Below are positions 1 to 10,424 of a stretch of DNA of 10,424 nt, piece by piece. The stretch is from Candidatus Hydrogenedentota bacterium (lineage in GTDB: Bacteria; Hydrogenedentota; Hydrogenedentia; Hydrogenedentales; GCA-2746185): positions 1 through 10,424 of the forward strand of contig JAYGCN010000073.1 of assembly GCA_046583315.1 (NCBI GenBank), given 5' to 3'. The notes under the pieces were generated by a model. That model was not told the DNA's origin and searched no databases. It saw only the letters and a list, made by a program, of their open reading frames with translations. Position 1 is the first letter of the stretch. Every line of letters starts with the position of its first letter. The translations under genes and the position numbers were made by a program.

Positions 1-576
1 GTGCGAATCGATCGCGTTAATCATGGTCAGCGAAGGTAGATGAAGCAGCGCGCTGGCTTTCAGGCCGGTGCCAAGGTCTGCCAGACTTGCCGTCAGATAG
101 CCACGTTGATCGTCAAAGGTAAAATCGATCATTCCCACGAGTGAGTCGTCTATTCGCGTAAGGTTGGACCAGATGTCGTGGAGTTGTTGCCCCGAAGCAT
201 GCCCAAAAAGAGTGATATGATCCGCGCCGTTGATGGCCAAGCTGATTCGCTGTCCATCGTTGATGTGAACACCGCGCGCGCCCGACGAATGAATCAGGCG
301 TGGCGGGATGAGACGGCGTTCCATCAGAAAATGCGCCTGGACATCGTCGACCTCAGAAAAGGAGTAATAGGTTCCGTCCGCATCCATATTGATGGCGGCT
401 AGTGATTCGACAATTCGTTTTTCTACAGCCTCGAGGGTGTCGCCGTTGCACTGACTCGTAAATGGGTAGTCGGCGAGATTGCGCACAAGACGGCAGTGGG
501 TGCTAATGACGATGTCGGCGTGGGGGCCTTCGCCATCGAGCCATTGAACGGGGTTTTGCAACAAGGCATCAAGCAT
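1..576 (-). CDS. mcsB: McsB-like ATP:guanido phosphotransferase-family protein (protein-arginine kinase homologue), 3' end outside window; catalytic motifs degenerate
   Basis: Manual translation from the ATG at 576, 1 nt after the mcsA stop, is open to position 1: MLDALLQNPVQWLDGEGPHADIVISTHCRLVRNLADYPF...FLMERRLIP...ISLAINGADHITL...IDFTFDDQRGYLTASLADLGTGLKASALLHLPSL. It is collinear with the McsB motifs (DIVISSRIRLARN, ERHLIS, NEEDH, GYLTxCPTNxGTGLRAS, LHLPAL) and lies directly downstream of mcsA. Confidence 0.9.
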   Translation of the reverse strand, partial: MLDALLQNPVQWLDGEGPHADIVISTHCRLVRNLADYPFTSQCNGDTLEAVEKRIVESLAAINMDADGTYYSFSEVDDVQAHFLMERRLIPPRLIHSSGARGVHINDGQRISLAINGADHITLFGHASGQQLHDIWSNLTRIDDSLVGMIDFTFDDQRGYLTASLADLGTGLKASALLHLPSLTMINAIDSH

Positions 577-577
577 T

Positions 578-1099
578 TTACTCGCTTCCCTGTGGTGTTG
601 CGCCGAGCCCCGTTTCGAGACTTCTGATTTCGTCTCGCAGGATCGCAGCTTCTTCATAACGTTCGGCACTCAGCGAGGATTTGAGCAGTGCCCGTTTCGT
701 CTGAAGATCCGCGCGTACGCGTGAGCGCGTGTCGTCAATGTGAGGGGTCTTGCCGGCATGTGTCAGCCCCACGTGCATGTCGAGCAGAATAGGTTCCAGT
801 TCCTCAGCGAAAAAACCGTAGCACTCCGCGCATCCCACCATGCCGGTATTCCTAATCGTCTGGAAATCAGTGTCGCAGGAGGAACAGGTGGGCATCGGAA
901 ACAGGGCCGACCCGCGACCAGAAGCATCTTTTTCGCGACGCAGAAAAGGTGCCGGGCGGGAAAATTCGAAACCCGCTGCCTTATAGTTCTGCTTCTTGTC
1001 AAGGCATTCACGACACAGCTGTTGGTCGATTACTTGCCCGTCGACCACCTCGGCGTAGCGGATGGATGCGAAGTTTTTATGGCATTGTTGGCAATGCAT
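578..1099 (-). CDS. mcsA: McsA (protein-arginine kinase activator; four CxxC motifs plus C-terminal UVR domain)
   Basis: CQQC, CREC, CSSC and GCAECY motifs, H-x-GK-x-P, and a UVR-like tail (ERYEEAAILRDEIRSLE). Adjacent to the mcsB-like gene. Confidence 0.93.
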   Translation of the reverse strand: MHCQQCHKNFASIRYAEVVDGQVIDQQLCRECLDKKQNYKAAGFEFSRPAPFLRREKDASGRGSALFPMPTCSSCDTDFQTIRNTGMVGCAECYGFFAEELEPILLDMHVGLTHAGKTPHIDDTRSRVRADLQTKRALLKSSLSAERYEEAAILRDEIRSLETGLGATPQGSE

Positions 1100-1724: not shown

Positions 1725-2960
1725 TTAGCCCTCAATCTTCGCAATCAGCAACGTCTGGTCATCATGCGTGGGCTCGTTGCCGGCGAAGGCTTTGAGATCC
1801 TGGAGCAGGGATTCGATGATGTGTGCGGGCGTTTCGGTGCATTGGCGTACCGACTCGGTGAAGCGTTCTATGCCGAATAGTTCGCCGTCGCTGTTGCGCG
1901 CTTCAAAGATGCCATCGGTAAAGAGCACAAGGAAGTCGCCGGGCTGCAACGCGAATTCGTAGGTTTCGTAGGATTTCGATTCACGGATGCCCAGTGGCAT
2001 GTTCTTGGTGGCTTCGGGGACGTCGAAGGTGCAATCGGTGGAATGCAGCACGAGCGGAGAGTCGTGTCCCGCGCTGGCGTAACGCATCAGGTGGGTCTCA
2101 GGATCGTACACCGCGTAAAAGGCGGTCACGAAGGTCTTGGTGATGTTCGTGTATCGCAAGATGAGGTGATGGTTGATGAAGTCGAGCATGGATGCCGGGT
2201 CGTCGTTGATGTCCGGATTCGTGTGCGCGATGCTGTGAGTGATGGCCATCAATACGGCGGCTGAGGGGCCGTGTCCGCTGACATCAGCGATAAGCAGTCC
2301 CCATTTCCCGGACGGCAGCTCAAAGAAGTCGTAGTAATCGCCACCGGCCTGTTCTGCGGCTTCGTAATGAACGGCGAGTTCCACGCCCGGTATTTCGGGC
2401 AGGCCGTTGGGGAGCAGGGAGAGTTGGATGCCCGCAACAACTTTCACTTCGTGGTCGATTTTTCGGTGCGCTTCTTTGAGGGCATCGCCCACGCGCAGGT
2501 TGTGAATCGCGCGCCCGAAGAGGTTACCCGTCCACACGATTTCCGGAAGTAGTTCTTCGTCGAAGGCTTCGGGATCCTTGCTAAGCAGCACGGTCATGTT
2601 GAGCGCTTCACGGTTGTCGAAGGTCGGCAAGGAGAGTAAGGAACGGTAGCCCTTGAGATATTCGTATGCGGGATCGGACTCATCGAGATCGTAATCGACC
2701 AATACCACTGCACGATTGTTGAAGATGAGATCGCCGAGTATTCCGCCCTCAAGCACGGGAAGTTTGTCTGGGTCAAGCCAGGGATCGATGGGTTCTTCCC
2801 ATTCGCTGTAACGCGATATCTGAAACTGGGGTGCGGGCACATGACGGCGCGTCATGGAAAGGGATGCATCTCGCTCCAACAGACTGCCCACTTCTTCACC
2901 GAATACTTGAACCATTTCGCGCGGATCGTCGGTGCTGCTCAATGCCTTTACGCTCTTCAT
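1725..2960 (-). CDS. PP2C/SpoIIE (RsbU-like) serine phosphatase with N-terminal GAF-like sensory region
   Basis: PP2C motifs IQxSLLP, GGDYYDF, IADVSGHG, FVTAFY, SAGH, FTDGI and DDQT. The N-terminal region is GAF-like (YRSLLSLP...PEAFDEE). The true start is uncertain (see findings). Confidence 0.92.
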   Translation of the reverse strand: MKSVKALSSTDDPREMVQVFGEEVGSLLERDASLSMTRRHVPAPQFQISRYSEWEEPIDPWLDPDKLPVLEGGILGDLIFNNRAVVLVDYDLDESDPAYEYLKGYRSLLSLPTFDNREALNMTVLLSKDPEAFDEELLPEIVWTGNLFGRAIHNLRVGDALKEAHRKIDHEVKVVAGIQLSLLPNGLPEIPGVELAVHYEAAEQAGGDYYDFFELPSGKWGLLIADVSGHGPSAAVLMAITHSIAHTNPDINDDPASMLDFINHHLILRYTNITKTFVTAFYAVYDPETHLMRYASAGHDSPLVLHSTDCTFDVPEATKNMPLGIRESKSYETYEFALQPGDFLVLFTDGIFEARNSDGELFGIERFTESVRQCTETPAHIIESLLQDLKAFAGNEPTHDDQTLLIAKIEG

Positions 2961-3022
2961 GACTGCTTCGAGACGCTCTTCGAAGGGCTGAGTCTGATCA
3001 AAAATATGCTGCGCTGTGCCAT
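2957..3022 (-). other. 21-codon upstream ORF, or frameshifted 5' end of the PP2C gene
   Basis: GAGGA-6nt-ATG at 3022 gives MAQRSIFLIRLSPSKSVSKQS*. Its TGA (2959-2957) overlaps the PP2C ATG (2960-2958) as ATGA. Confidence 0.45.
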
Positions 3023-3079
3023 GGTGGGTCCTCGGGATGTTTTACAGACAGAACACCACAATACCGTTTTTCATTCGAC

Positions 3080-3115
3080 AAAATAAAAAGAGGCGCGGTA
3101 CAGGTACCACGCCTC
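3080..3115 (-). terminator. Rho-independent terminator downstream of the redoxin gene
   Basis: The minus strand reads GAGGCGTGGTA-CCTG-TACCGCGCCTC (11-bp stem with one G-U pair) followed by TTTTTATTTT, 24 nt after the redoxin stop codon. Confidence 0.85.
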
Positions 3116-3139
3116 GTAGTCGATGCCTAAGTAGAACGA

Positions 3140-4285
3140 CTAATCCGATTCCGGTAAATCCAGTGCGGGATAGTACTCTCCCTCGGAGGCCTGGAATTTT
3201 TTCATCCATTTGGCCCCGGCTTCCTTGGGTGCAAAGGACCAGTCCTGGCGATGATAATTCCAGCTTTCCGGACGCAATTCCTGTGATTTCGCCCAGTATT
3301 GCCCGGCCAGTTCCATGTTGTCTGTGAGTTGAAAATGTGTTGCCAGCTGAAAATACGCTTCGGCCTGCGCCTGATCATCGGTGCGGGGGGCGAGTTTCCC
3401 AGTGACTACCTCTGGCGAAAAAGTGAACTTGCTTTCCGCACCTTTCTCAACCCAGTCGCGCAATGCGGCCACATACGCGTCGCCCGCGCTGGAGAGGGTC
3501 TTGCCTCCCAACTTCAGTTCGGTCTTCTTGGGAGATGCTGTTTCGGGTGGACGAACGATGATGCCCTCTTCATTGATCCATACACCGGAAGGAACATTGG
3601 TCATGTTGTAGAGTGTGCTGATCAGATGACGCTCGTCAATAACGGTCGTGTAGGTTGCTTTGGCTTTGTCGTAAAACTCGCCCGCGGCTTCCTCACCGCC
3701 GGAGTCCTGCGCGAAAGAGAGGAGTTCAAAATTCTGGTCCTTGAGGTCATCGTAAATGGCTTGCCACCCGGGCAAGTCGAAGCGGCATCCTCACCACGAG
3801 GCCCAAGTGTGAATCATCACTTTTTTGCCGCGATAATCGCTGAGGTGAACCGTCTTGCCATCGCGATCCTGCAACTCGAAATCCGGCGCCACGGCCGATT
3901 CGAGGTAGCTCGATTGGTTTTGCGGAATGGGTGCAAAACTCCACACACGACTGTCCGCGTCATAAGCGTAGGCTTGATTCACAATTTGCGCCAGACCGGT
4001 GACGTTGACCCAAGACATCCCCGTACGTTTTACGAAGAGGTCGCTGTCTTCATCCTGCTTGATAGGAATGCACAAATCGTCCAGGCACGCGCCTTCCGGT
4101 TTAAGGACAAAGCCGTTCACCCGTGTAAGATCAGCGGGGGACACCCAAAGATCGGTCGGCGACGACAAGGTTTCTTCAACCCCAATGGTTTTACCTTGAT
4201 AAAGAACAGTCGTGGGTTCGGCGGAAGCGATTGAGGCGCTCATGAGGATAATTGGAACTCCCAAAGTAACTAGCCGGCGTTTCAT
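3140..4285 (-). CDS. Probable selenocysteine-containing thioredoxin-fold redoxin (TlpA/ResA/AhpC-TSA-like, WAxxUGC motif), 381 aa, with signal peptide
   Basis: Track ORFs 3791..4321 and 3140..3775 are in the same frame, separated by one TGA (3793-3791) plus GCRFD. The joined sequence reads APDFELQDRDGKTVHLSDYRGKKVMIHTWASW-[TGA]-GCRFDLPGWQAIYDDLKDQNFELLSFAQD...NVPSGVWINEEGIIVR. ATG 4285 has a strong SD (AGAAGGAG) and is followed by the signal-like MKRRLVTLGVPIILMSASIASA. Confidence 0.88.
3742..3793 (-). promoter_or_regulatory. Putative bacterial SECIS element with the Sec UGA codon
   Basis: The mRNA reads UGA GGAUGCCGCUUCGA CUUGCC-CGGGU-GGCAAG. This is a perfect 6-bp apical stem (3776-3760) with a 5-nt loop beginning 20 nt after the UGA and a G at loop position 2. 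UGAGG can also pair with the downstream CCUCA (3746-3742). Confidence 0.7.
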
Positions 4286-4425
4286 GCGAATACTCCTTCT
4301 CGGCGTTATAGAATAGTCCACTATCTAATCACAGAATACAGGTTAAACACAATGCCATTCAGGCGGTTCCGATCTCAGGCGTTGTAACACGGGATTCTTG
4401 GGTCCATGAACAGAATTCAGACGAT

Positions 4426-5517
4426 TCAGTCCCCGTCGTCGTGCGCGCCGTGTTCGGCTTCTTCGTGCTGCATCTGCTCGCCTTCACTGGCGAGAGCGGT
4501 GATGCTGAAGCCGTCGGTGATGAGGAAGTAGGCCCCGAGAATGAGGACCGGCGGAAGTTGTATGAGGTGATTGATGAGCGCGAAGGCTTTGGCTTCATCC
4601 ACATTCATGTCGGGGAGAATCATAACCAATGTGATTACGATGGGTACATGATACTGTCCGATAAATCCTGGTGCCCCCGGCGCAGCGATGAATACAGACA
4701 AGATAGATTGCATGACGAAGGGCGTGTACCACGGCGCGTCAATATTGAACGCTCGGAGTGTCGCGTAAAAAATCAGGATGGGCATCGCCCAGGTCAGCAT
4801 CGAAAAAAAGATCGAGAGGAACATATCACGCGGCGACTTAAATACTTCCAGGCCTTCGGCAAAATGTGTGAGCAGCTTGACCCCAATCGCAGCGAGCTTC
4901 TTTGAGATTACGCCGATAACCCTTTCGACGATGCCAATGAAGAAATCCTTCTTCACGTAAAGCATTACAAAAGAACCAATGATCGCGAACATCAAAATCC
5001 CCATACTGTATGCGCCCGATCGGTACAATTCGGCTGGAAATTTGATGGGCTTTGGAGTGCCGAAGGTGGAAGCAGGAATAACGACATCCGCGACAGGTTG
5101 ATACGCAAAAATCGCGACCAACATTACCGCAATCAACGCAAACAAATCGGTCACACGATCCAGTGCCACGTAGGCGAAGGTTTTCGAAAAAGGAATCTTG
5201 GTCAGGCGTGTGAGGACCAGCGCACGCACCGCTTCTCCGACGCGACCGGGTAGGGTAAAGTTTGCAAAAAATCCGATTTGGGTCGCACTGGCCAAGTTGC
5301 GAATGGACGTGGGAGTCACCGAGTTAACGATGTATTTCCAGCGAATGATGCGGAATACGAAGCTGAACATCAGTGGGACGTGCGCGATGGCCAGCCACAT
5401 CAAATCAATGTTTTTAACGGTTTCCCAGACCTGAGCCCAGTCTGTACTTCGAAACAATATCCAGATGAGAAACCCGCCAATCAAGAGTCCTACAAGTGCT
5501 ACAAGTTTCTTTTTCAT
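4426..5517 (-). CDS. UPF0104 / lysylphosphatidylglycerol-synthase TM-domain (flippase-like) membrane protein
   Basis: Many hydrophobic helices and the family motifs RxxRW, GFFANFTLPGRVGEAVR, DRVTD and APGAPGFIG. Confidence 0.88.
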   Translation of the reverse strand: MKKKLVALVGLLIGGFLIWILFRSTDWAQVWETVKNIDLMWLAIAHVPLMFSFVFRIIRWKYIVNSVTPTSIRNLASATQIGFFANFTLPGRVGEAVRALVLTRLTKIPFSKTFAYVALDRVTDLFALIAVMLVAIFAYQPVADVVIPASTFGTPKPIKFPAELYRSGAYSMGILMFAIIGSFVMLYVKKDFFIGIVERVIGVISKKLAAIGVKLLTHFAEGLEVFKSPRDMFLSIFFSMLTWAMPILIFYATLRAFNIDAPWYTPFVMQSILSVFIAAPGAPGFIGQYHVPIVITLVMILPDMNVDEAKAFALINHLIQLPPVLILGAYFLITDGFSITALASEGEQMQHEEAEHGAHDDGD

Positions 5518-5547
5518 GCAGGCGGCTATCCCTTTATTATCGTTGGC

Positions 5548-6864
5548 TTAGACTGAAGCGGCTTTGGTGCTGCCCACATAGGCGTCGATTGAATCGCGTA
5601 TGGTTTTGAGAATCCACGCACGCTTCTCATCATCGTGTTCCAGCAATGTCCCGCGGAATCCGAGGTGGGTACATTGGAATCCTGTCAACGGCACGACCAC
5701 GATGCCCGTGGCACCCATCAAGTAATAGACGAATCGTTTGTCCGGTGCCACGTTACGCGTCAACTCTTCGATGGTCTTGCGGATTTCAGCGTTTTCGATA
5801 GGAAGCATCTGTTCATCGTTCAGCACGCCATCCTTGAACATCGTCGTATAATAAAACGCGCCGCCCGGTTTGTTCAGGATGACCGATTCACACCCTTTGT
5901 ACGATTCCATGAGCTCATCCGCACGCGCCCCGAACATCGCTTCACGTCCAGCCAGATGCGCCGGGTAACGCTCATCGCCAATGACCTTCGGGATCGACAA
6001 CTGAGGAAGCGTCGTGGACGATACTTCAAGGCGTTTCGCCGCGAGGATGCTGTCGACATAGGTGCCGAAGTTACCGTCTTTCTCGCGATTCAATATTTCC
6101 AGCCAGCCACAGCGCGATCCTGGCCACGGGTACTCTTTGCTGATACCACGCATCGCGAGACCCGGCACATCCCCGATCCATTCGCTCATGTGGAGATGCT
6201 CGTTTCCGTTAAAGACGATGTGCGCGTAAATCTCGTCTGAGATAATGAAGAGATCATGTTGACGCGCGATCTGTGCGATTTCTTCCAGCACTTCACGCGG
6301 ATACACGGCGCCCGTCGGATTGTCCGGCGAAAGCAACAAAATACCCGCGATCGAGTCGTTGTATTTCACCTTCTTGCGAATGTCATCAATGTCCGGCATC
6401 CATCCCTTATACGGATCGAGGTCGTAGGTCACATGGTTGTAACCCGAATGCGCAGCCTCGGCCGAAGAGTGCGTGCTGTACGCCGGGGAGGGACCGAGAA
6501 TGCGCGCTTCACGACGGAGAAATCCATACACCTTCGCAACCGCATCGCCCAGTCCATTGAAAAACATGATGTCGTCAGGCGTAATCTTCACGCCCTCGCG
6601 ATTGTTGACATGCTCTGCAAGAAAATCGCGCGTTTCCGGTACCCCCGCCGTGTCGCAATACGCCCACGATTCACCCTGCGCAACCAGATCGCGCACGATG
6701 TCCCGAATCCATTTCGGCGGATTCTCGCCCTTCTGCACCGGGTCGCCAATATTCTCCCAGCAGATCTCCATGCCCAAATCACGCATCTTATGCGCAACCG
6801 CAACGATCTCCCGGATTTCATATTTAAGGTTGGCGGCACCGTCATGTACGATATTGCGACGCAT
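5548..6864 (-). CDS. PLP-dependent aminotransferase class I/II (alanine/aspartate aminotransferase-like)
   Basis: NIGDP, PDNPTGAVY, SDEIY, the PLP-lysine region GISKEYPWPGSRCGW, and PGGAFY. ATG 6864 (MRRNIVH) is preferred; GTG 6876 is the alternative start. Confidence 0.93.
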   Translation of the reverse strand: MRRNIVHDGAANLKYEIREIVAVAHKMRDLGMEICWENIGDPVQKGENPPKWIRDIVRDLVAQGESWAYCDTAGVPETRDFLAEHVNNREGVKITPDDIMFFNGLGDAVAKVYGFLRREARILGPSPAYSTHSSAEAAHSGYNHVTYDLDPYKGWMPDIDDIRKKVKYNDSIAGILLLSPDNPTGAVYPREVLEEIAQIARQHDLFIISDEIYAHIVFNGNEHLHMSEWIGDVPGLAMRGISKEYPWPGSRCGWLEILNREKDGNFGTYVDSILAAKRLEVSSTTLPQLSIPKVIGDERYPAHLAGREAMFGARADELMESYKGCESVILNKPGGAFYYTTMFKDGVLNDEQMLPIENAEIRKTIEELTRNVAPDKRFVYYLMGATGIVVVPLTGFQCTHLGFRGTLLEHDDEKRAWILKTIRDSIDAYVGSTKAASV

Positions 6865-6887
6865 AATATAACTCACAGTTAATTACC

Positions 6888-7075: not shown

Positions 7076-7363
7076 ATGGGCCAGATTCCGGCTACCTCAA
7101 AGATTATCATCGGTATCTTGATCGTCCTGTCGCTTATATATCTCTGGTTCGGACATCTGGAAAACGAGCGTGAAACGGAGTTGGCTCGGCTCGCAGGAAC
7201 CGATCGACAAACTCAGATTTTGATGACCGAGCTGGACGAATATCGAATTCTCAATGGAAATCAGCAGCGAGGCATCCTGATTGCTGGAGGGGTAATCGTC
7301 CTCGTGGCCTCGATAGGATGGATCAGGCAATCCGATCACCAATCTGGGGCAGATTCAGAATAG
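7076..7363 (+). CDS. Hypothetical small membrane protein (2 predicted TM helices)
   Basis: AGGAGG upstream of the ATG. Hydrophobic segments IIIGILIVLSLIYLWF and ILIAGGVIVLVASIGWI flank a charged helical loop. The ORF fills the gap between neighbouring genes without overlap. Confidence 0.7.
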   Translation: MGQIPATSKIIIGILIVLSLIYLWFGHLENERETELARLAGTDRQTQILMTELDEYRILNGNQQRGILIAGGVIVLVASIGWIRQSDHQSGADSE

Positions 7364-7374
7364 GGACACTCGCC

Positions 7375-8124
7375 TTATTCATCGGAAAGAGTCGGAGAAT
7401 CGACCGGCTGATCACCCAGATCCCTACGAAACACCAGCTCACGAATATACAGCAGGAACAACCAATACGTGACGTACTCGCGAAATTCCGAAATGTTACT
7501 GCCGATGTTTGACGCGTCGCCGTATCCCCGGTCATTGAGAAGATGGGCGAATTGACTCACCAGTACACTGCCCAACAATGTGAAAACGGAATAGCGATCC
7601 GGAGCGAGATACCTCAGGTATCGATTGCGACTCTTGTGAAATCCGAAGGGCAGTACAACGAACAACACGAACATGCCCAGGTCAACAATACGTTTGATGG
7701 TGGACGTGCGATCGCCGACATTGTGCAAATTACGGTTCGCGGCGGCCTCGTCGGACTGTATGCCGCGGGCATACTCATAAAAATGCAACCCGTAATCAAT
7801 TTCTTCCAGGAAAACGAAAAAGGCGAAAAAGGCCAGGCCGCCGAATGCGACGCGTTCAACCAGATCTTTCTTGCGTACGGCACCCCGAATCGCGAAAACC
7901 ACCATGGCCAATAGTAGGACGTTCTGCAGATTCTCCAACAGTCCAAATTCACGTTGCGAGTTGCCATAGATCCCCTCAATTGTAGGTGTAATGATTTGCC
8001 GAAGCACAGGAATTCCGGAGAAATACATCAAAACCATCACCAATGTGGAGATGATAGGCACGGCGATGTACCAAATCAGTTTTTGACGGTTTTCTGCGAC
8101 TCCGGTGTCGTCCAGTTTATCCAT
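7375..8124 (-). CDS. Hypothetical polytopic membrane protein
   Basis: 249 aa with about 6 hydrophobic segments and motif-like GLLENLQ, FLEEIDYG, NLHN and SEFRE. It does not overlap the neighbouring genes. Confidence 0.82.
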   Translation of the reverse strand: MDKLDDTGVAENRQKLIWYIAVPIISTLVMVLMYFSGIPVLRQIITPTIEGIYGNSQREFGLLENLQNVLLLAMVVFAIRGAVRKKDLVERVAFGGLAFFAFFVFLEEIDYGLHFYEYARGIQSDEAAANRNLHNVGDRTSTIKRIVDLGMFVLFVVLPFGFHKSRNRYLRYLAPDRYSVFTLLGSVLVSQFAHLLNDRGYGDASNIGSNISEFREYVTYWLFLLYIRELVFRRDLGDQPVDSPTLSDE

Positions 8125-8230: not shown

Positions 8231-9586
8231 TCAATTCTTCGACCGGCTGACAAATCCCGATTGCTCGGAGTTTTCCTGTGCAGAGTCACTTCCCGTGCCG
8301 GGCACCCCAATCTTAACGGAACTCCCCGCCGGGTTCAGTTGGATGGTCGTCGCGCTATTGATCGTTCCGGTCCAGTTTGACTGTCTGTCAGCAGCGGTCC
8401 CATCCAGGCGGATAGTACCGCTGCTAGCAACCATTTCAACGGCCTGCGCGAAAGAATTCACGGGAAATGATGAAGTTCCACGTTCCGAACCGGTCCAGTC
8501 GAAATCAGTATTAACAGTCGAGATCTTGACTGGCGCCGCGTCCGAATACCCGATATCTTTCAATGCAGCAATGCCCAGCGCACCGTAAGTGAGACTCTGT
8601 ACGCCGGAAGCGATCGCATGTTTCATAATTTCATCTGGAAACGTAGGGGTATCCCAATGACTTAAACTACTTCCGCCGCTAAAAGAGATCGGGGAATAAA
8701 TCTTGGGAATCGCGTTGCCGTTTTCGGCTATCGAATTCGTTCCGGAAAAGCCAACATCATTCGAAACTAAATCGAACGCATTTCCGACGAAGGCGAAACT
8801 GGAATTCCACAAGTCGACCGCACCTGTAATCCGGGTAAGCCCATCTGTTAGGACCGTGAACACGCCTGGACTGCCTCCGCTTAGTGCGCTGTTGCCGCTT
8901 GCGTCACTCAATCCAATGAAGCCCAGCCCATGCGTTATTTCGTGGAGCATTACGGTGAACAGGTCATACTCCGACCCGGTTGGTGTGCCGGTGTCCGAGT
9001 TCCACGTATATCCAAAGTCGACCGTGACATTTAAATCGTGCGTCCCCCCCAAGGGATCGGAGCCCGTTGTTATGTGCTCGAAAGCAAATCCGTTGTCAAA
9101 ACGGTTTGGCGAGGTAAACCAAATGGTTCCCGCCGAGGCTAGAGATCCGGTTCCATCCATCTGGGATACGGCAATTGAAATATCAATTGTAGCTCCCGTC
9201 GTTTCGTTAAGTACATTATTGACGTACGTCAACACTGAGACTACGGTTGCTCGACGGGTTGCGCCGAAGGTAGCATCATCGAAACCGATTCCGTTGCTCG
9301 CTGTTACATCCGCATACGTGACGATGAAGGTCAGATTTCCGGCTCGTGTGCCATTCGAAACGACCGAATGAGGAAGGCCCGAAGATTGGGCGAATCGTCC
9401 CGGGTTTTCAGAGTCCACGATTTCGGTATACCCGGTATGTGGTTCGAAATAGATAAGATCCTCAGCGAAAGTGGGAACGGCATAATCCAACCCGACATAC
9501 GCTGTCAGGGCGAATACGATTGCGCAGCGATGAACCGAAATATGTCGCGTCGATTCAGATTTAACAGCATCTGTCACATTTGTCAT
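8231..9586 (-). CDS. Probably secreted zinc-metalloprotease-like (HExxH) protein
   Basis: DLFTVMLHEITHGLGF, followed by GSSLSHW and a possible Met-turn (DEIMK). The composition is Gly/Ser/Thr/Asn-rich, as in extracellular proteins, with an N-terminal hydrophobic segment. ATG 9586 (after GGGGA) is preferred; starts at 9610 or 9628 are possible. Confidence 0.78.
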   Translation of the reverse strand: MTNVTDAVKSESTRHISVHRCAIVFALTAYVGLDYAVPTFAEDLIYFEPHTGYTEIVDSENPGRFAQSSGLPHSVVSNGTRAGNLTFIVTYADVTASNGIGFDDATFGATRRATVVSVLTYVNNVLNETTGATIDISIAVSQMDGTGSLASAGTIWFTSPNRFDNGFAFEHITTGSDPLGGTHDLNVTVDFGYTWNSDTGTPTGSEYDLFTVMLHEITHGLGFIGLSDASGNSALSGGSPGVFTVLTDGLTRITGAVDLWNSSFAFVGNAFDLVSNDVGFSGTNSIAENGNAIPKIYSPISFSGGSSLSHWDTPTFPDEIMKHAIASGVQSLTYGALGIAALKDIGYSDAAPVKISTVNTDFDWTGSERGTSSFPVNSFAQAVEMVASSGTIRLDGTAADRQSNWTGTINSATTIQLNPAGSSVKIGVPGTGSDSAQENSEQSGFVSRSKN

Positions 9587-9628
9587 GTCGTTTCCCCATC
9601 CTTCGGACATTCGATTTTTCGTTACCAC

Positions 9629-9663: not shown

Positions 9664-9790
9664 TATGGGCTCATCCCAAAGAGTAATGGATTTTACCCTT
9701 CGAATCAACCCCGTCAGGCTGTCACTGGTTCCCGAAATGAACGGGGCCTGGCTTCGAAAATGCACATGTGTAGGCTTCACCACTTTTCGC

Positions 9791-9819
9791 TAGAGATCTT
9801 CATGTTGGCTTGGTATAGT
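9791..9819 (+). promoter_or_regulatory. Putative extended -10 promoter for xylB
   Basis: TAGAGA (9791-9796), a 17-nt spacer ending in TGG, then TATAGT (9814-9819), 51 nt upstream of the xylB GTG. Confidence 0.5.
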
Positions 9820-9870
9820 AGGCTCTTTCGTGAAGGTCGCGAATTCTTGCTGCAAAGAAAGGGATTTGGG

Positions 9871-10424
9871 GTGTATTTAGGAATCGATCTTGGTACTTCG
9901 GCCGTAAAAGCGGTGCTTGTTGACGACTCGGACACGGTGGTCGACCAGGCCGGTGCGTCGCTCGAGGTATCGCGTCCCCATCCGCTTTGGTCCGAGCAGG
10001 ATCCCGCGCATTGGTGGGCCGCCACGAATTCCGCCGTGCAGGAAATCAGGGATCGGCGATCTTCTGAGATGAAAGAAGTCAAAGCGGTCGGACTCTCAGG
10101 ACAGATGCACGGCGCGACCCTTCTCGGCCCAGATAACAAAGTCCTTCGCCCGGCAATTCTCTGGAACGATGGCAGGAGCGGTCAGGAATGCCTGGAAATC
10201 GAGAAGGCCGTGTCCAATTCACGCGCCATCGCCGGAAACGTCGCCATGCCCGGATTCACCGCACCGAAATTGGCCTGGGTACGCAAGCATGAACCAGATA
10301 TTTTCGCAAAAGTCACCAAAGTCCTGCTCCCGAAAGATTATCTTCGATTTTTGATGACCAACGAATTCGCGTCCGATATGTCCGACTCAGCTGGCACCCT
10401 TTGGATGGATGTCGCGAACCGTAA
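9871..10424 (+). CDS. xylB: Xylulokinase (FGGY family), 3' end outside window
   Basis: Manual translation from GTG 9871 (AAAGGGA upstream) is open to the window end: MYLGIDLGTSAVKAVLVD...SRPHPLWSEQDPAHWW...GLSGQMHGATLL...LRPAILWNDGRS...MPGFTAPKLAWVRKHEPDIF...LLPKDYLRF...SDMSDSAGTLW. Confidence 0.95.
   Translation, partial: MYLGIDLGTSAVKAVLVDDSDTVVDQAGASLEVSRPHPLWSEQDPAHWWAATNSAVQEIRDRRSSEMKEVKAVGLSGQMHGATLLGPDNKVLRPAILWNDGRSGQECLEIEKAVSNSRAIAGNVAMPGFTAPKLAWVRKHEPDIFAKVTKVLLPKDYLRFLMTNEFASDMSDSAGTLWMDVANR

Follow-up and report, generated by a model that had tools for sequence, protein, structure and literature searches.

An in-frame TGA in a ResA/TlpA-like redoxin gene of a Hydrogenedentota bacterium is most likely read as selenocysteine

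The minus strand of the window, the whole 10,424-nt stretch analysed here, carries two neighbouring reading frames, at 3791-4321 and 3140-3775, separated by a TGA that falls in a redoxin-like active site, which raises the question of whether they are two genes, the remains of one, or a single gene whose TGA is translated. Sequence comparison indicates that both frames are most likely one gene in which the TGA is recoded to selenocysteine (Sec, U). Read in this way, positions 3140..4285 (minus strand) give 381 residues and a terminal TAG, an extent seen in the translation and in the full-length alignment of homologues, and the sole codon departing from genetic code table 11 is codon 165, the TGA at 3791..3793 (minus strand), predicted to encode Sec by translation and by the homologue column. 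A sequence-only reading had placed this TGA at 3793-3791, codon 165 of 381, which the translation reproduces exactly, and had proposed a single redoxin with UGA in a WASW-U-G-C motif at a TlpA/ResA-type active site, which is supported here; U165 lies in the context HTWASW-U-GCRFDLP, and an NVP motif occupies residues 230-232. The Shine-Dalgarno sequence AAGGAG (4293..4298, minus strand) precedes the ATG at 4285 by 7 nt. Table 11 breaks the gene at the TGA, and the second frame then begins with a TTG, as the same reading had observed, but its remark that this start lacks a Shine-Dalgarno sequence does not strictly hold, as an SD-like GAGGA overlapping the TGA lies 12 nt upstream of the TTG at 3775. 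The 211-aa downstream half is a separate entry of the protein collection (P0008, 100% identity), so gene callers do split the gene, as had been anticipated.

Just past the gene, a pattern scan finds an intrinsic-terminator-like 11-bp hairpin with a T-tract (3080..3115, minus strand); two terminator-like sites occur in the region against a shuffle mean of 2.1, a count that alone is non-significant. No sigma-70 promoter-like site was found in 2900-4500, and the gene looks monocistronic. A contig of one public run is identical to the window over 3000-4029, TGA included (0 differences), and may stem from the source sample rather than from an independent one. No RNA run is listed among the runs with this sequence. 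In runs X5, X6 and X7 no contig of this organism covers the TGA, and none of the contigs examined from public runs has another base there.

Homologues of the joined protein give the comparison that the sequence-only reading had asked for, and it favours Sec. At the column of codon 165, TGA is found in 102 and TGC in 4 of the 106 distinct DNA loci that are homologous, and full-length database proteins have Cys in 117 of 119 cases, with a single Trp and a single Arg (1/119 each). The 106 loci comprise 15 from phylum searches, 14 from a genome-contig scan and 77 from the best 80 of 532 metagenome relatives; four duplicates over 60 nt from the codon, two loci unaligned at codon 165 (L074 and L075) and two ordinary CxxC redoxins (L025 and L032) are left out. 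The Cys-form control at the DNA level consists of these 4 loci only, and kin among the loci are non-independent. Named records of several phyla are included among the TGA loci, and the host genome itself holds three copies of the family, all with TGA. The two host paralogues (G000:C318:3491-4612(+) and G000:C186:17333-18445(-)) are 51-54% identical to the window protein and have TGA at column 165 and a hairpin each. Two codons downstream, the second redox residue of the U-G-C motif, Cys167 (3785..3787, minus strand), is invariant in the 102 Sec loci and in all 119 Cys-form database proteins, in which position 168 is always R, K, S or N. Since the Cys forms are therefore C-x-C, the short x-G-C motif is family-wide, and the shortened UxC motif that had been pointed out is present without being a Sec-specific trait.

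The machinery for Sec insertion, the other check that had been suggested, is encoded in the host genome (4.65 Mb, 355 contigs, 96.66% complete, 5.38% contamination, 53% GC). A profile search finds selA at 491.8 bits, selD at 268.1 bits, tRNA-Sec (selC) at 78.3 bits and a SelB winged-helix domain in a 645-aa frame, all above the curated cut-offs. Both marks of a bacterial selenoprotein gene, the UGA/Cys column and the set of selA, selB, selC and selD, are thus found. Of 135 genomes of the phylum, 10 have a UGC-family match at E<=1e-40, and nine of these genomes belong to the family of the host. Of 13 genomes with the UGC protein family, 10 were found to have selA. The 97% complete genome G008 has the Cys form only and no selA, selB, selC or selD above cut-off, and G010 has both Sec and Cys forms together with all four sel genes. 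In G003 (88% complete), a TGA copy (L021) with a perfect hairpin was found, yet none of the four sel genes, and a second selenoprotein query gave a best match that is distant and without TGA; an assembly gap, mis-binning or a relic gene are possible readings of this case.

The host SelD (L057:3204-5396, on G000:C299) is encoded in a 730-aa frame that also has a CAGC motif in the Cys form and a long domain at its N-terminus. By eye this domain looks like an NADH dehydrogenase, and the frame resembles the Ndh-SelD fusions described in the accessible text of PMC2398784. Five more candidate selenoproteins occur in the same genome (L162-L166, on G000 C77, C303, C94, C272 and C101), with an AhpC-TSA domain spanning the TGA and a U-x-x-C motif; two of them carry a C-terminal DsbD_N-like domain, and the C101 candidate has TGA-containing orthologues in G006 and G010. 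A query for Sec formate dehydrogenase returned none in the host, where the four molybdopterin oxidoreductase matches have no internal TGA.

A predicted SECIS hairpin follows the TGA at 3760..3776 (minus strand), with a 6-bp stem, CUUGCC/GGCAAG, and a 5-nt loop, CGGGU, 20 nt after the UGA; it covers codons 170-176 and was revealed only through homologue comparison. All 102 TGA loci can form a hairpin 20 nt past the UGA that has 4 bp or more in its stem and a 5-nt loop whose second base is G, and the stem is found in 0/4 Cys loci. According to section 5 of PMC13188914, as far as that text is accessible, a bacterial SECIS has a loop of 3-9 nt, a stem of 4-16 bp, a spacing of 16-37 nt, G within the first two loop positions and an MFE <= -7.5. 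With 6 bp, a 5-nt loop and 20 nt the hairpin lies within these bounds, as it does with the -8.1 kcal/mol at which the downstream 24-nt segment folds alone, although it is not the MFE fold of a longer context. In the 60-nt context of the window the core-pair probability of the hairpin is 0.07 and a competing helix dominates, which uses bases just after the UGA that a paused ribosome would presumably cover. The region downstream of the UGA folds no better than shuffles by MFE (z -0.21 to +1.78), and the helix obtained is a different one. Genome-wide, 483 TGA sites get through a loosely set SECIS filter, mostly by chance, so the hairpin by itself is weak evidence.

Two of its base pairs covary. 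Base 1 of Leu171 and base 3 of Gln175, both synonymous, pair as C-G in 65, U-A in 14, U-G in 1 and C-A in 1 of 81 loci, and base 3 of Asp170 and base 1 of residue 176 as C-G in 34, U-A in 34 and C-A in 3 of 71. Fisher values overstate the significance of such counts among non-independent kin. On a tree built without the hairpin codons (a quick version, midpoint-rooted, with no AU test and L094 omitted), the U-A state must have arisen through 3 changes, of which strong branches force 2 or more. Codon 171 ends in G in 102/102 TGA loci, and the encoded peptide is compatible with the hairpin in 101/102 Sec loci versus 33/119 Cys proteins. The Sec reading is supported because selABCD, the TGA/Cys column and a covarying SECIS-type hairpin occur together, and we regard it as nearly certain that this is one open frame with SelB-dependent Sec insertion through the hairpin.

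On the same tree, the Cys forms L016 (G008) and L052 (G010) are placed next to the window gene within a group of Sec forms (SH-aLRT 86) and no longer have the hairpin, which suggests a change from Sec to Cys. In X5 and X6, contigs from other organisms share with the window only 3750-3805, which spans the UGA and the SECIS, a pattern consistent with conservation of the nucleotide sequence at this place.

The family to which the protein belongs was published as early as 2008, as a predicted family of selenoproteins. Zhang and Gladyshev described 'Prx-like (UGC-containing)' proteins of pfam00578, counting 46 sequences with Sec and 855 homologues with Cys (PMC2398784, in the text accessible), and Dataset S1 of that paper, in its accessible part, contains WASWUGC sequences of this type; a TWASWUGC entry is by eye close in its onward sequence to the window protein and to the paralogue L055. 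The window protein has both the pfam00578 domain and the UGC motif of the UGC-containing Prx-like/TlpA selenoproteins found in the 2008 GOS work, and from the accessible descriptions no essential difference emerges. In the accessible part of a 2026 review 'UGC-containing TlpA' stands under 'predicted' and not under 'experimentally verified' (PMC13188914), and that of PMC9312934 also gives the family as predicted. The three-domain layout, the signal-peptide classes and a family SECIS are absent from the UGC-family descriptions in the accessible text of PMC2398784 and PMC13188914. In the open literature searched, no experimental study of the family was found: 'UGC-containing' with 'selenoprotein' retrieves computational work only and 'WAxxUGC' no paper. 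The family terms are likewise absent from BSepDB, from the accessible part of the Haft and Gwadz preprint and from the main text of PMC5029168 as far as accessible, whose supplements may list the family.

Among curated models, NCBIfam NF041054 (WAxxUGC_long, ResA-like, equivalog) is by far the best family (E 2.7e-86, model positions 5-340 of 354), so that the WAxxUGC ResA-like family mentioned in the sequence-only reading does exist. The window protein has its motif (WASWUGC) and its long multi-domain form but scores 290 bits, short of the 300 bits set as curated cut-off; the model is matched by each of the 120 proteins in the alignment, of which the query is one. In 15 relatives, five signal-less proteins score 484-547 and the other ten, mostly signal-bearing, 245-329, of which four pass, among them the closest relative, L015, at 317. 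Going by these scores, the model is centred on the signal-less clade, and the window protein is a sub-threshold homologue from a signal-bearing clade at its edge.

The structure model of the protein (pLDDT 92.8, pTM 0.89) has three domains behind a low-confidence N-terminus, which matches the pattern of a signal peptide. By eye, residues 1-22 (4220..4285, minus strand) have the basic N-terminus, hydrophobic core and A-S-A of a predicted signal peptide, and 106/120 proteins have a hydrophobic 9-mer close to the N-terminus. Twin-arginine-like RRxF[LV] N-termini are found in one clade, in 21/106 loci (among L085-L150) and in 3/119 Cys proteins, and L061-L072 begin just ahead of the N-domain core with no signal peptide. 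The N-terminal domain (about residues 23-120; 3926..4219, minus strand) is predicted to be beta-rich and weakly usher-N-like: modelled alone, it gives weak likeness at Z 7.1 to the N-terminus of 5h3k, 5.5 to Caf1A-N and 5.2 to FimD-N, with Foldseek E >= 0.28 in the comparison with copper amine oxidase N-terminal and usher N-terminal domains. In the window copy it has no Pfam match at E<=1 and no Foldseek match at E<=0.001; matches in PDB sequences were rejected as spurious repeat hits. Within it, C67-x4-C72 (4070..4087, minus strand) is placed on adjacent strands of a predicted beta-hairpin (model strands E65-68 and E71-73), and this pair is kept in 119/119 Cys-form proteins and in 96/97 Sec loci with enough upstream sequence, including the signal-less clade.

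The central domain (about residues 128-284; 3434..3904, minus strand) is a ResA/TlpA-like thioredoxin fold by Pfam (AhpC-TSA 3.7e-16, Redoxin 3.3e-11) and by the model, with Z 14.8 to the DsbE-like 3gl3 and 14.4 to ResA 2f9s (rmsd 2.2-2.3) and an NVP (predicted cis-Pro) loop at 230-232. In CxxC proteins the nucleophile sits at the start of the active-site helix, and in the model residue 165 directly precedes helix 166-181. The predicted TlpA-type fold, the WAxW before the nucleophile, the NVP loop and predicted export are shared with ResA, TlpA and DsbE (CcmG), but these have C-x-x-C where the window protein has U-x-C together with extra N-terminal and TPR-like domains, and it scores below the ResA, TlpA and StoA cut-offs. 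Nor was a conserved neighbour gene seen, of the kind that a cytochrome c maturation operon would give. The C-terminal region (about residues 291-366; 3188..3415, minus strand) is helical and TPR-like in the model, with a conserved W342-N-x-H-R-Q and an invariant Y371-Y372 just beyond it. Precomputed matches to PF07719, PF00515 or PF13181, which we take to be TPR families, are found in 20/120 listed homologues, and the window protein has no TPR Pfam match at E<=0.01.

With this architecture, the predicted gene product is a ResA/TlpA-like thiol-disulfide oxidoreductase that would be exported and falls in the UGC-containing selenoprotein family. SelB would very probably bind the hairpin 20 nt downstream and deliver Sec-tRNA, and the predicted signal peptide would export the protein. 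The fold suggests that Sec165, which lies where the active-site helix starts, would attack a substrate disulfide and that Cys167 would resolve the intermediate as a selenenylsulfide. The bacilliredoxins YphP/BrxA and BrxB, thioredoxin-fold proteins whose active site has CGC spacing, offer a mechanistic analogy only; their substrates in B. subtilis and S. aureus are bacillithiolated proteins, which they reduce (PMC5444506, in the text accessible), and no bacilliredoxin family is among the Pfam or NCBIfam matches of the window protein. CGC thioredoxin-fold proteins have potentials of -130 to -200 mV (PMC3173608, accessible part), and by analogy the centre would be relatively oxidising, hence reductase/isomerase-like; a disulfide reductase or isomerase role is probable, with some reserve. 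Speculatively, the protein substrate may be bound by the TPR-like tail, and re-reduction of the centre may fall to the C-x4-C of the N-domain or to a partner of DsbD type. The earlier term 'selenoenzyme' should be read as a prediction. Clustering of 1215 ORFs from the 106 loci yields no conserved gene neighbour and so no pointer to the substrate, the largest clusters (7-9 loci) being mostly one group of close Acidobacteriota records.

Could the TGA be a true stop, left by a recent nonsense mutation in a pseudogene or followed by re-initiation at codon 171 to give two polypeptides? Codon 171 is always NTG, the SD-like sequence overlaps the TGA, and G003 has the TGA without detectable sel genes. 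However, the TGA is conserved across 102 loci of several phyla, and both halves are conserved, with identity to L015 of 26/35 residues on one side of the TGA and 66/85 on the other. Codons 166 and 167 would be untranslated, yet Gly166 and Cys167 are invariant in 102/102 TGA loci with free synonymous codon variation (TGC 89 and TGT 13 for Cys167), so the codons after the TGA are under protein-level selection, which argues against a stop with re-initiation. Moreover, codon 171 is CTG, a poor start codon, in 66/102 loci, and we consider a true stop very improbable. A genome-wide change in the meaning of TGA, to Trp or Gly (tables 4 or 25), could be read from the Trp at column 165 in one of the 119 database homologues, but TGA terminates 335 of the host's 1368 long frames, the sole UGA-reading tRNA is tRNA-Sec, with tRNA-Trp being CCA, and the counterpart residue is Cys, not Trp or Gly; this reading is effectively refuted and has next to no probability left.

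Two further alternatives accept Sec and concern what it does. A GPx/Prx-like peroxidase, in which the selenol would reduce peroxides and Cys167 would resolve, is suggested by a Pfam GSHPx score of 27.3 bits, just above the cut-off of 27, by a U-G that matches the GPx active-site pattern, and by the first name of the family, 'Prx-like' (PMC2398784, accessible text). Yet Sec stands at the first CxxC position and not in the Prx TxxU motif, and the PxxxTxxC/U peroxiredoxin motif is not found in the window protein (motifs from the accessible part of PMC13188914); structural likeness to ResA/DsbE (Z 14.4-14.8) exceeds that to Prx/Bcp (up to 12.3) and GPx (11.2). By eye, NVP stands where GPx has WNF, and the GPx Gln motif is not seen. 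A peroxidase is accordingly unlikely. Alternatively, U-x-C and the N-domain C-x4-C might together bind or traffic a soft metal or metalloid, with no disulfide catalysis. The four invariant S/Se ligands would fit, the C-x4-C persists in the signal-less clade, where a purely structural disulfide is presumably less expected, the twin-arginine-like N-termini (21/106 loci) would imply export of a folded protein, and Haft and Gwadz (bioRxiv, accessible part) propose heavy-metal binding for other Cys-rich selenoproteins. Against this, no metal-related or other neighbour is conserved, and the fold with its NVP loop is of the disulfide oxidoreductase type; we hold metal binding to be quite unlikely. 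The probability left beyond the oxidoreductase reading and the four rivals belongs to an unforeseen function.

For the oxidoreductase reading, we tentatively hypothesize, as a possibility that we hold to be rather doubtful, that the UGC family is a self-contained two-centre redox relay, in which U-G-C would be recharged by the C-x4-C of the usher-N-like domain and the TPR-like tail would select the substrate, with three compartment-targeting forms (Sec signal, twin-arginine-like signal and no signal) and repeated Sec-to-Cys reversions erasing the SECIS. If the relay were real, this would be the first natural U-x-C oxidoreductase characterised, as far as the literature searched goes. The UGC family is widespread and its biochemical role predicted. 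Neither the recoding mechanism nor the protein family is new, and the case, though real, is an ordinary one. The new contributions are covarying base pairs that support a family SECIS, three classes of targeting and a cysteine pair that is invariant in the N-domain. For annotation, the split gene (P0008) is repaired, and the NF041054 cut-off is seen to miss part of the signal-bearing clade. The short and strongly covarying in-frame SECIS offers a convenient test of how a SECIS constrains protein sequence, and the natural Sec/Cys pairs in close relatives, such as both forms in G010, a test case for U-x-C versus C-x-C chemistry.

The other genes in 1171-2960, 4426-6876, 7076-8124 and 9760-10424 of the window do not recur beside the gene in relatives, except for one 6-locus cluster that includes the downstream neighbour. 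They encode a SUI1-like protein, a SpoIIE-type phosphatase, an LPG-synthase TM protein, a class I/II aminotransferase and the start of an FGGY kinase, and two of them are membrane-like ORFs without a Pfam match. At 1-1099 (minus strand) a UVR-motif protein is followed by an ATP:guanido phosphotransferase (Pfam), which we take to be the McsA-McsB arrangement, and at 8231-9628 (minus strand) lies a 465-aa protein with no Pfam match and the motif HEITHGLG, presumably of the zinc-metallopeptidase-like kind.
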